Source: Eledone cirrhosa (Eukaryota). From it: 64,000 bases of DNA. The stretch lies in NCBI GenBank assembly GCA_964016885.1, contig OZ024740.1, positions 377,890,001 through 377,954,000 on the forward strand, written 5' to 3'. Below the pieces are notes generated by a model. The model was given only the letters and a program-made list of their open reading frames with translations. It was not told where the DNA came from and did not search any database. Positions 37,514-60,270 of this stretch are shown here, in pieces. The position numbers were made by a program, and so were the translations under genes. Each line of letters opens with the position of its first letter. Within the stretch, counting starts at the first letter, position 1.

Positions 37514-37955
37514 TATATTAATAAGAGGAATTCCAACTTTGTCTGATTTACTCGTTTTATTTACAATCCTTTAAAATATATATAATGGTATTATAATGAA
37601 ATAGTATGATAGAATATTAAATTCTAAGTGTTAATTGAACAAGTACTTTCATGCTTTCGCAATCTTCAGGTTCATGATATGTGGTGACAGTCGAGTTTGC
37701 AATTTTCGACAATTGAAAATTGCAAACTCGACTGTCACCACATATCATGAACCTGAAGATTGCGAAAGCATGAAAGTACTTGTTCAATTAACACTTAGAA
37801 TTTAATATTCTATCATACTATTTCATTATAATACCATTATATATATTTTAAAGGATTGTAAATAAAACGAGTAAATCAGACAAAGTTGGAATTCCTCTTA
37901 TTAATATAATCTTCTATACACAATCATACACACCCGTGTATATTTACCTATCTAT
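37514..37955. mobile_element. Fold-back element H1, copy 1: 194-bp perfect inverted arms plus ~45-bp tail (probable inverted PLE pLTR)
   Basis: Arms 37514-37707 and 37715-37908, loop GACAATT; (TA)n on both sides; second copy at 50124-50555. Confidence 0.85.
37748..37786 (+). ncRNA. Minimal type I hammerhead ribozyme motif (mirror copy on minus strand at 37636-37674)
   Basis: UGAAC-CUGAAGA-U-UGC(GAAA)GCA-U-GAAA-GUAC-UU-GUUCA: stem I UGAAC/GUUCA, core CUGANGA and GAAA, palindromic stem III. Confidence 0.75.
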
Positions 37956-38244
37956 ATATATATATATTTATATATATATATATTTATATATATATATATA
38001 TATATATAATATATATATATATATTTATATATATATATATATATATAATATATATATATATATATATATTTATATATATAATATATATATATTTATATAT
38101 ATATAATATATAATATATATATATATATTATATATATATATATATAATATATATATATATATATAATATATATATATATATAATATATATATATAATATA
38201 TATATATATATAATATATATATATATATATACATATACATATAT

Positions 38245-38712
38245 ATCATCATCATCATCATCAACGTTTAACGTCCGTGTTCCACGCTTGCATGGGTTTG
38301 GACGGGGGTATTCCCACTTGAGGCAAGAGTGATTGTCTTGCTCGCATAGGACTGTCTGGCAGGTTTTCTACAGTTGGATGCCCTTCCTAACACCAACCAC
38401 ATTTACAGTGTGGGACTGGGAGGTTTTTACCGTGTTGCCTACACGGCCACATTACAGCGTGGACTGTGTGTTTTTTTGTCGTGACACCTACACGATCTCA
38501 TTTGTTTCGGCCTGGATGTTGTGGCACCAACATAACTTTACATAGGAGGGGGTGGTGTGGATGGGGGTGTGGGTGGTGGGACGCGGGTGTATTTTGTTAG
38601 AGATGCTTACTGGCTGTAGTAGGTTTTACTATGTATTTAGGTAAGGCGGGTCTTCTCTATTACTGAGTACCGCCAAAGGTCTCGGTCCAGTGACATTGTC
38701 TTGGAGAGGTGT
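38245..38712 (-). mobile_element. RTE family A, 5'-truncated (last codons plus 3' UTR)
   Basis: [24 protein letters not shown], then 3' UTR and (GAT)n tail into (TA)n. Confidence 0.92.
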
Positions 38713-39039
38713 ATATACATATATACCTCTTGGAGAGGTGTATATACATATATACATATATATATATATATATATATATATACATACATACATACATATA
38801 TATACATACATATATATATACATACATATATATATACATACATATATATATACATACATATATATATACATACATATATATATACATATATATATATATA
38901 TATATATATATATATATATATATATATATATATATATATATATATATACATATATATATATATATATACATATATACATATACATACATATATATATATA
39001 TATATATATATATATATATATAAATATATATATATACAT

Positions 39040-40255
39040 ATCATCATCATCATCAACGTTTAACGTCCGTGTTCCACGCTTGCATGGGTTTAGACGGGGG
39101 TTTTCCCACTTGAGGCAAGAGTGATTGTCTTGCTCGCATAGGACTGTCTGGCAGGTTTTCTACAGTTGGATGCCCTTCCTAACACCAACCACATTTATAG
39201 TGTGGGTCTGGGAGGTTTTTACTGTGTTGCCTACGGCCACATTACAGCGTGGACTGTGTGTTTTTTTTGTCGTGACACCTACACGATCTCATTTGTTTCG
39301 GCCTGGATGGTGTGGCACCAACATAACTTTACATAGAAGGGGGCGGTGGGGTGGGGGGGGGACGGGGACGGCGGTGTATTTTGTTAGAGATGCCTACTGA
39401 CTGTTGTAGGTTTTACTTTGTATTTAGGTAAGGCGGGTCTTCTCTATTACTGAGTACCGCCAAAGGTCTCGGTCCAGTGACATTGTCTTAGTGAGGTGTA
39501 ACTGTGTGAGGTCGGAGTTTATCAGCTCGTCCCAGGTTTTTCTGGGTCTGCCTATTCCGTGGCTACCGTCTAGCTTTATTGCCCTGCACTTTGTTATACA
39601 GCTTTCGTCCTTCATGCGCATCACGTGACCATACCAACGTAGCCTTCTCTCTAGTAAACAACATCTGATCCCTCTTATTTCTAATTTTTTCCTTAGTTCG
39701 TTTATGCTTTGTCGTTCACGTATATTACTATTACACATCCAGCGGAGCATGCAAGCTTCGTTTCTCTCTAGTCTGCGTATATCCTCTGCACACAATGCCC
39801 AGGTCTCACTGCCATGCAACATTGCTGTTCGTATGCAGGCATCGTACAGCCTGCCTTTCATTTTTAGGGAGAACCCTTTAGCGGCTAATAGTGGTATAAG
39901 CTCTCTGAACTTTTTCCACCCAGTTCTGACTCTAGCTACTGTACTTTCAGAGCACCCTCCCCCACTGCTGATTTTGTCACCCAGGTAACGGAAGCTGTCC
40001 ACTATTTCTATATAACCCTCTGCGCAGTTGAAAGAGCTAGTATTTTGTGGGCACTTGCTGCTACTTATTGCCCCAGAACACCGGCCACATGTAAAATCTA
40101 TGTTCTTAGTTAGCTTACCTGTGATCCCACTACATCTTTTATGCACCCAAACTTTGCATTTGGGACACAAAATGGAATTTCTACCTACGCGTTTCCTACA
40201 CTCTGCGCATGGCCACTTCCCGGAGGGGACCGTCGACTTATTTTCTTTCTTACAC
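39040..40255 (-). mobile_element. RTE family A, 5'-truncated; ORF C-terminal part 40255-39424
   Basis: PHD-like Cys cluster, [32 protein letters not shown] motifs. Confidence 0.93.
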
Positions 40256-40875
40256 ATATATATATACATATATATATATATATATATATATATATGTATA
40301 TATATATATATATATGTATATATATATATATATATATATATGTATATATATATATATATATGTATATATATATATATATATATATATATATATATATATA
40401 TACATATATATATATATATATATACATATATATATATATATATATATACATATATATATATATATATATATATATATACATATATATATATATATATATA
40501 TATATATAGACATATATATATATATAGACATATATATATATATAGACATATATATATATATATATGTATATACATATATATATATATATATATACATATA
40601 TATATATACATATATATATATATATATATATATATATATACATATATATATATATACATATATATATATATATACATATATATATATATATATATACATA
40701 TATATATATATATATATATATATATATACATATATATATATATATATATATATATATATATATATATACATATATATATATATATATATATATACATATA
40801 TATATATATATATATATATACATATATATATATATATATATATATATATACATATATATATATATATATACATAT
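40256..40875. repeat. (TA)n microsatellite with TACA/TAGA interruptions
   Basis: Direct reading. Confidence 0.95.
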
Positions 40876-58718: not shown

Positions 58719-58780
58719 TATATACACACACATACATATATATATATATATATATATATATATATATATATATATATATA

Positions 58781-59098
58781 AAATAAAGTTAAATAAAAGT
58801 CAAATGATTAAAATTTAGCTTCGTTTATTACTGCTATATATATTTCAGTGACAGCCATCTTTGGCTGTGACCTCTTCAGGCAGTTTGAATTAGTATGGTA
58901 TAGACAAGTACATATGTTGTTTAGGTGTATGATATTGTCAATACTCTGATATGCCCAGTTCCTTGCTGGGTTGTTAATTCACTGGGGAACTGGAGTCATA
59001 TTTTACACTACTCCGGAGTAACCAAACCAACCTGCGCACTTCGTCGAGTGCTCCAGCCTGCATACTGAGGTGTTGGTATACAACCAACATAAACTCAA
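58781..59098 (-). mobile_element. Short non-coding element H3 with a hammerhead ribozyme (solo pLTR or retrozyme-like)
   Basis: ~318-bp unique island between (TA)n tracts; HHR at 58830-58884. Confidence 0.65.
58830..58884 (-). ncRNA. Hammerhead ribozyme motif
   Basis: ACUGC-CUGAAGA-GGUCACAGCCA(AAGA)UGGCUGUCACU-GAAA-UAUAUA-UA-GCAGU. Confidence 0.8.
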
Positions 59099-59147
59099 TA
59101 TATATATATATATATATATATATATATATATATATATATATATACAT

Positions 59148-59857
59148 ATGAAGGTGGCGACAACATGTAGACGATTCGCTGGCTGGATCTTGAGGACTTT
59201 CCTTACAAGAGATCGAGACACCATGTTGACACTGTGGAGGACTTTTGTCCTAAGCCGCCTGGACTACTGTTCCCAGCTGTGGTCACCCGATAGTGTCAAA
59301 CTAACCACGGAGCTTGAGGCAATCCATCGAAGCGACACCAAGAGGATTGCCAAGATGAGGGAGACAAGCTACTGGGAGAGGCTGAAGGAACTGAACCTCT
59401 ACTCCTTGGAGCGAAGACGGGAGAAATACGCAGTGATCTACATGTGGAAAATCCTGGAGGGACTAGCACCAAACTTTGGCATTGGGAGCTGGACCAACCG
59501 TCGAACAGGATGTCACTGTGTGGTGCCAAAGGTCCCGTCTTCCACATCTAGAATAAGGAGCAGGTATTGCAATAGCCTGGGATTCAAGGGCCCTCAACTC
59601 TTCAACAGGCTGCCGAGGCATCTGAGAGACTTGCATGACGTGGAGGAGGATGTCTTTAAGAAACATCTCGACACCTTGTTATCCAGGATCCCGGATGAGC
59701 CCACAGCAAGACACGAGGGAAACCTAAGGGCAGCAGCAACAAACTCCCTCCTACACCAGTGGCTAACCTATACAGGCTGGAGATAAAATGTGTAGCGGCA
59801 AGGGCGGTGCCCCAGCATGGCCTCAGCCGGATGGCTGAAACAGGTAAAAGAGTAAAT
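59148..59857 (+). mobile_element. CR1-group LINE 3' fragment (same family as 47587-48828)
   Basis: [22 protein letters not shown]; stop at 59786; GGCTGAAACAGGTAAAAGAGTAAA tail. Confidence 0.9.
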
Positions 59858-59891
59858 ATATATATATATATATATATATATATATATATAT

Positions 59892-60270
59892 GTAGATAAA
59901 TCTACCAAGAGTTTACGGTAGTGTCCAATCCGTATGAAGAACTCAATGTATTCCGGATATCATGGAAAGAAGAGATGTAATGAAAATCCACTTTCGGTGA
60001 AAGATAAACGGTATACAGAGTCAAGATAAAATATTAAACAAATAATGAACAAACAATTCCTTATATTAATTTCTGAAGACGGCGTATATATGTGTTAGGT
60101 ATGTATATTTAATCTTGATAATTTGTATAATTTTGTATAATTTTGTACATAGATCTGTTGAATATGCATACCAATTATAACACATATATACCCTAGAAAC
60201 GATCGTTAAATAGTGAACTTTTTTTGTTTAATATAAGGAATTGTTTGTTCATTATTTGTTTAATATTTTA
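59892..60270. mobile_element. Element H4: tail plus 43-bp perfect inverted repeats enclosing a hammerhead ribozyme
   Basis: IR 60027-60069 / 60228-60270; (TA)n flanks. Confidence 0.75.
60069..60211 (+). ncRNA. Hammerhead ribozyme motif with long stem II
   Basis: AUUU-CUGAAGA-[GUAUAUAUGUGUUA/UAACACAUAUAUAC; GGUAUGUAUAUUUAA/UUGAAUAUGCAUACC]-GAAA-CGAUCG-UU-AAAU. Confidence 0.75.

Follow-up and report, generated by a model that had tools for sequence, protein, structure and literature searches.

Results

Ribozyme-bearing repeats in a (TA)n nest of Eledone cirrhosa

We analyzed a 64,000 nt stretch (hereafter the window, to which coordinates refer) of the 3.0 Gb genome of Eledone cirrhosa (contig OZ024740.1), and examined in it the region 37,514-60,270, a nest of retroelements within (TA)n. 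Five small elements that an earlier note had described in this nest, H1a, H1b, H2, H3 and H4, are all present, each within (TA)n. As detailed below, H1-H4 are the terminal repeats, consisting of a pseudo-long terminal repeat (pLTR) and a tail, of four coding families of Penelope-like elements (PLEs) of this genome, and their short copies, here called stubs, share a fixed 5′ end, at which an extra G in three families suggests a copied RNA cap.

H1a (37514-37955) consists of two pLTR stubs from a Neptune/Nematis-type PLE joined head to head, in which the left arm (37514-37707) is tailless and the right arm (37711-37955) ends in a tail (~37909-37955); its hammerhead core through the predicted cleavage site occupies 37753-37781 on the plus strand, and a mirror copy starts at 37669 on the minus strand. 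H1b (50123-50550) is a separate insertion of the same family, with the tail on the left arm, a central junction unlike that of H1a, and cores at 50325 (minus) and 50400 (plus). H2 (47343-47548, plus) is a stub pair of a Hydra-type PLE, with an inverted arm at 47343-47401 and a sense arm that begins at the fixed start 47410, carries the 3′ half of a hammerhead with the predicted cut after 47450, and continues into a tail (47471-47548). H3 (58780-59098, minus) and H4 (59892-60270, plus) are likewise stubs of Hydra-type PLEs. The former has a sense arm from ~59001 with its core at 58879 and the predicted cut after 58835; the latter, from a 6.06 kb unit, has an inverted tail and arm at 59892-60069 and a sense arm at 60069-60270, with its core at 60073, a 116-nt insert in stem II and the predicted cut after 60207. 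A further Hydra-type PLE, termed here the local PLE, forms a partial tandem on the minus strand (53004-58714), with an open reading frame (ORF) at 54095-56452 and hammerheads at 53152 and 56732.

The layout of an inverted repeat plus a one-sided tail, previously ascribed to H1, H2 and H4, was found in these three (inverted arms of 194 nt in H1a, 59 nt in H2 and 44 nt in H4), and it extends to H3, which is built in the same way with an inverted tail at 58999-59098. The description of the elements as unrelated was correct for DNA, as H1-H4 and the local pLTR are mutually dissimilar (best E 0.12), but not for protein: with the ORF adjoining H2 as reference, the H2 partner, H4 partner and local PLE ORFs are 42-46% identical. 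The absence of DNA similarity ruled out the local PLE as the parent of H1-H4. Genome-wide, exact 30-31-mers of H1, H2, H3 and H4 matched 1,502, 22,604, 3,303 and 1,455 times, respectively, both fold-back arms being counted.

The small elements are termini of coding Penelope-like elements

A link to PLE ORFs was found for all of H1-H4: longer copies of every element run upstream into a 3′ untranslated region and downstream into an ORF encoding a reverse transcriptase (RT) and GIY-YIG. In all four families, an ORF with RT and C-terminal GIY-YIG is flanked by the repeat in partial tandems, the H3 copy being frameshifted. The earlier note had proposed PLE-derived or PLE-mobilised ribozyme mini-element families; derivation from PLEs is thus upheld, while separate mini-element families are not, and in substance all four elements match PLE termini, an outcome that the note itself had named as speaking against its proposal. 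Its suggestion that TA microsatellites are targeted agrees with the 3′ junctions, which are mostly TA runs.

H1 precedes a 449-aa ORF and an overlapping 728-aa RT and GIY-YIG ORF in 4.2 kb tandems, in which Pfam recognized RVT_1 and GIY-YIG. This ORF pair was read at locus L160 (2063-5643 of that locus), where the second frame is already open when the first stops, and it recurs in L157-L161; the overlap holds a run of six T, a possible programmed frameshift. H2 and H4 precede intact ORFs of 719 aa and 813 aa, respectively, the latter in 6.06 kb tandems, and H3 lies, in a unit of 4.15 kb, between a GIY-YIG end upstream and a frameshifted PLE ORF downstream. H3-family ORFs (L346:2689-3756 and L342) are frameshifted or truncated, and an intact copy was present in none of the three loci examined. 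Pfam returned nothing significant on the Hydra-type ORFs. By their RWK-type and DKT motifs, CxC-x5-C linker and lack of CCHH, the partners of H2, H3 and H4 are assigned to the Hydra clade as defined in PMC8557442, with the H3 motifs being read across a frameshifted copy. The H1 partner is classed as Neptune/Nematis-type by its DKG motif, CX4CxxC linker and CCHH-type endonuclease residues. Judged against the literature, the H1-H4 families appear to be new members of known PLE clades.

Hammerhead ribozymes of the four families

In agreement with the earlier note, a motif scan found complete hammerhead cores in H1, H3 and H4, that of H4 under loose criteria only, and the 3′ half alone in H2. The type I scan that returned the cores of H1a and H1b (both strands), H3 (minus) and H4 (plus) also matched the local PLE (53152 and 56732, both minus) and position 17999 (plus); the last is a hammerhead-like motif whose stem II region spans 101 nt and which passes the strict scan. 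Strict matches numbered 8, whereas 30 Markov simulations averaged 0.03. Rfam gave no hammerhead among the 150 of 160 window matches listed at E≤1 and none on the full H2-family ribozyme, and single-sequence folding returned the full hammerhead fold for none of H1-H4.

In a set of 11 H3-like sequences, including related families from the flanks, the core was invariant and stems I and II covaried: on a structure drawn from H3 itself, 97.8% of cells were paired and 10 of 17 pairs had changed on both sides, and none of 500 shuffles equalled the paired cells. The H1 and H4 ribozymes were nearly invariant across copies, too uniform for covariation testing. The missing 5′ half of the H2 ribozyme was found in long copies, upstream of the stub start. 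Among the matches listed for the H2-family core (4,694 in total), the first 100 comprised 80 with U3 and 20 with C3, all with A8, which was fixed by the search pattern. The stem II insert of H4 (60080-60195) folds into a long and stable hairpin (z −6.6), and the corresponding insert of the local PLE is 88 nt long.

Stubs share a fixed 5′ end and end at one of two 3′ sites

To map stub ends, a long copy of each family was compared with the first 30 exact matches of that family on contig 1. The 5′ ends fell within −6 to +16 of a common start in 15 of 30 arms for H1, 21 of 30 for H2, 19 of 30 for H3 and 9 of 30 for H4; the other mapped arms mostly run far upstream, and few ends lie in the 100 nt upstream of the start. 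Where values such as −286 or −811 were obtained, the alignment had stopped at a difference in repeat length, and these are not true ends. Among close pairs, defined as those less than 1 kb apart in the first 100 rows of the matches listed, the fold-back centres lay at −10 to +15 in 12/17 (H1), 17/20 (H2), 10/15 (H3) and 14/17 (H4). Each family has two 3′ end sites, the arm end and the tail end (H1 +203/+277, H2 +61/+141, H3 ~+223/+320, H4 +206/+343), and paired stubs nearly always use one of the two each: exactly one tail was found in 40 of 44 head-to-head units, the four exceptions being two interrupted H1 arms, one mis-grouped H2 unit and one H3 unit with two tails.

Junction sequences differ from copy to copy, which indicates that the palindromes arise at insertion, and fixed palindromes like those of miniature inverted-repeat transposable elements (MITEs) were therefore rejected. 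Short and long copies are both present in the four commonest H2 subfamilies. Relative to the ribozyme core, the start lies ~5 nt (H4), 40 nt (H1) or 120 nt (H3) upstream and, in H2, inside stem II. Stub copies span the predicted cleavage site, and ends set by ribozyme cleavage were rejected since only 5 of 278 arms begin there, in a sample biased towards copies reaching upstream of that site. The analogy with retrozymes drawn in the earlier note failed as well: the stubs are single or head-to-head, short tandem arrays were not seen in the sampled loci, and the same-strand repeats have periods of 3-6 kb and contain ORFs.

Promoter-like motifs and an extra G at the start

In H1 and H2, a TATA-like box is located 28-29 nt upstream of the start, and an initiator-like TCA is found in all four families. 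At −1, H2 copies have G in 4,193 cases versus A in 740, where the long copies examined have T or C and the flanks contain 16% G and 34% A. Judged by eye, the G was unexplained by the partner arm or tail in 54 of the first 100 G rows among the matches listed for H2, whereas comparable cases numbered ~6 among 100 rows for a control position (among the matches listed, 1,018 in total); several pairs carry the G on both arms, and in five rows it directly follows a TA run. For H4, G occurred in 31 of the first 100 non-reference rows among the matches listed, and at least 7 of 100 G rows had it directly after a TA run; for H3, it occurred in 38 of 100 G-or-T rows, ~20 of them unexplained. Across the examined loci, 13 of 29 arms beginning at the modal start had G as their first unexplained base, versus 4 of 34 arms beginning elsewhere.

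An untemplated 5′ G has been read as a copied cap in L1 and SVA (PMC4859970), and the extra G at −1 suggests this known footprint in H2-H4. Transcription of Penelope starts within the pLTR (PMC2377424), and we infer that the fixed start is an RNA polymerase II transcription start inside the pLTR. As a separate observation on the H1 promoter region, contigs of three sequencing runs showed a roughly tenfold rise in summed depth near the putative start in two runs of one study; these depths carry no copy number and were not used as evidence.

Other elements in the window

Many copies and fragments of long interspersed nuclear element (LINE) type that end in (GAT)n, also inserted in (TA)n, occupy 38246-46770, 49080-49625, 50990-52730 and 63360-64000. 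They encode an RT and a PHD-like finger, fall into at least two subfamilies and include one long frame (44120-46458); we take them to be RTE-like. Two fragments of another LINE-type RT, presumably CR1/L2-like, lie in opposite orientations at 47590-48830 and 59150-59856 and have overlapping 3′ ends. A further GIY-YIG PLE fragment, bearing cysteine motifs of Neptune type and interrupted by a LINE, is located at 62963-63364 on the minus strand. Beyond the window, the flanks of loci L001-L281 contain at least 12 other type I hammerhead families with a palindromic stem III, bystanders in TA nests, from which it follows that the genome holds many more PLE families.

Discussion

Origin of the stubs

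The stubs are probably copies of the capped 5′ leader of PLE RNA, made by the element's own enzyme. A promoter in the upstream pLTR would give a capped RNA with both priming sites present in its leader and again at its 3′ end. After nicking (TA)n on both strands, the PLE protein would start one cDNA at each internal site, the arm end and the tail end; synthesis begun at the RNA 3′ end would yield long copies, and synthesis begun in the leader would yield cDNAs of 60-350 nt that run off at the cap. Short homologies could then let two such leader cDNAs join head to head, which would produce the H1 layout where both are complete and the H2, H3 and H4 layout where one is cut short. The templates would be mostly uncleaved RNA, and the short template could be the leader of the full mRNA or a transcript launched from the 3′ pLTR. 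For a PLE protein studied in vitro, nicking and extension of both strands have been shown, with synthesis initiated internally at two sites flanking the tail and uncleaved RNA serving as template (PMC11167929). Leader-only copying would explain the thousands of mirror-image stubs. As the H2 start falls in the loop of hammerhead stem II, the H2 leader would carry half a ribozyme and the whole one would occur only in the 3′ repeat.

A more specific version is put forward tentatively, as a possibility on which we would not yet rely: the stubs may be by-products of an undescribed PLE pathway akin to retroviral strong-stop DNA, in which a dimeric enzyme primes at both (TA)n nicks, copies the capped leader twice and joins the products head to head, with the H2 promoter inside the hammerhead so that only the 3′ repeat self-cleaves. 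With the cut in the H2 3′ repeat, the 3′ priming sites would then be lost and synthesis would shift to the leader, giving rise to ~20,000 half-ribozyme arms.

Several points weigh against leader copying. The −6 to +16 interval was picked post hoc, and the two arms of a single insertion were counted separately and are hence non-independent; the 278-arm sample carries the bias noted above, and the row classes were judged by eye. A TATA box near −30 is absent from H3 and H4, the start in H2 and H4 is closely preceded by AATAAA, and H1 has no clear excess of G (18 of 100 rows), unexplained C being about as common. In H4, a 30-mer upstream of the start matched 1,668 times versus 1,455 for the downstream 31-mer and so gave no step, with the two patterns covering different subfamilies. 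A start predicted beforehand for the local PLE, whose copies are mostly long, was weakly borne out, with agreement for 2 of 5 ends near it (p 0.24) and, among fold centres, for 2 of 10. Both the transcription start and the cap are, moreover, deduced from DNA only.

Single and opposite-strand minimal hammerheads have been ascribed to truncated PLEs (PMC4209133; PMC8557442), and the stubs could accordingly be ordinary 5′-truncated, inverted insertions begun in the 3′ repeat, with the shared 5′ end being an RT stop at RNA structure or a polyadenylation cut. This agrees with AATAAA before the site in H2 and H4, with an H4 start only a few bases before the ribozyme and with the diffuse truncations of the local PLE, but a stall or poly(A) cut predicts neither an extra G at exactly −1 nor a start whose position relative to the ribozyme varies among the families, and few ends lie in the 100 nt upstream of it; we regard this explanation as unlikely. 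Somewhat less likely still is that the stubs are self-propagating non-autonomous families, similar to short interspersed nuclear elements or retrozymes, which are transcribed themselves and mobilised in trans by PLE protein. The ~5:1 ratio of H2 3′ to 5′ halves (22,604 versus 4,694) and the predominance of short copies in certain H2 subfamilies (52:7 and 11:1) would fit such families, retrozymes derive from pLTRs (bioRxiv 10.64898/2026.07.22.740005), and H3 and H4, lacking an upstream TATA box, could have internal promoters as does Drosophila Penelope (PMC2377424). Heterogeneous junctions, the long members of the main H2 subfamilies, H1 and H2 stubs without the upstream TATA box, the lack of short tandem arrays in the sampled loci and ends not set by the cleavage site all argue the other way.

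For rotifer Penelope elements, solo pLTRs, junction palindromes and TATA/Inr-like (initiator-like) pLTR motifs were noted and explained by deletion or antisense self-priming (PMC3846280). We consider it very improbable that an antisense transcript, by self-priming, gave rise to the palindromes here and that the solo pLTRs derive from recombination or deletion, because neither a stop of both arms at the same sense-strand start, at times with G on both, nor one tail per insertion is predicted by such a scheme. How the inverted and tandem ends of PLEs originate is an open question, for which sense and antisense templates have both been proposed; the fixed, G-marked 5′ end, together with the single tail in each pair, favours an origin from two sense-strand cDNAs, both made on a capped leader. 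If this is true, PLE promoters could be mapped from DNA alone, and under the strong-stop version the solo pLTRs would record in the genome where PLE transcription begins. PLE stubs may likewise account for thousands of sequences in invertebrate genomes that look like 'ribozyme MITEs', and these should then be annotated as stubs. Neither a fixed and G-marked 5′ end in solo pLTRs nor a counted one-tail rule was found in the available text of the PLE and retrozyme literature searched, which excluded subscription papers.

Comparison with known systems

The H2, H3 and H4 families resemble the Hydra-clade PLEs of Craig et al. 2021 (PMC8557442) in their C-terminal GIY-YIG, RWK/RWR and DKT motifs and CxC-x5-C linker, as well as in the pLTR hammerhead, (TA)n target, inverted truncated copy and one-sided tail, all of which had already been described for PLEs there. 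They differ in size, since the H3 and H4 units reach 4.15 kb and 6.06 kb where Hydra-clade PLEs are 'generally <3 kb', and in their tails of ~80-135 nt instead of 30-40 nt. By eye, H1-H4 match none of the ~29 Hydra hammerheads compared from the supplement, and a fixed capped start is not described in the available text of that paper. The H1 partner is like Neptune/Nematis-type PLEs in its DKG motif, linker and CCHH-type residues, and in having an upstream ORF that overlaps it in a different frame.

With its A8 and mostly U3, the H2-family core is like the U3-A8 minimal hammerheads of Schistosoma PLEs, a known PLE variant (PMC4209133), but unlike them its halves straddle the putative transcription start and its stem III is long. 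H1-H4 also share with animal non-LTR (long terminal repeat) retrozymes (PMC7229834; bioRxiv 10.64898/2026.07.22.740005) the small size, lack of coding capacity, type I hammerhead and relation to pLTRs; retrozymes, however, are head-to-tail tandems processed to circles, whereas the stubs are single or head-to-head with ends that ignore the cleavage site. Short genomic copies ending at a capped start and a one-tail-per-pair rule are not treated in the available text on PAc Poseidon (Frangieh et al. 2024, PMC11167929), whose behaviour in vitro the stubs nonetheless recall in the two internal starts bounding the tail, the AT-rich target, the extension of both strands and the use of uncleaved RNA.

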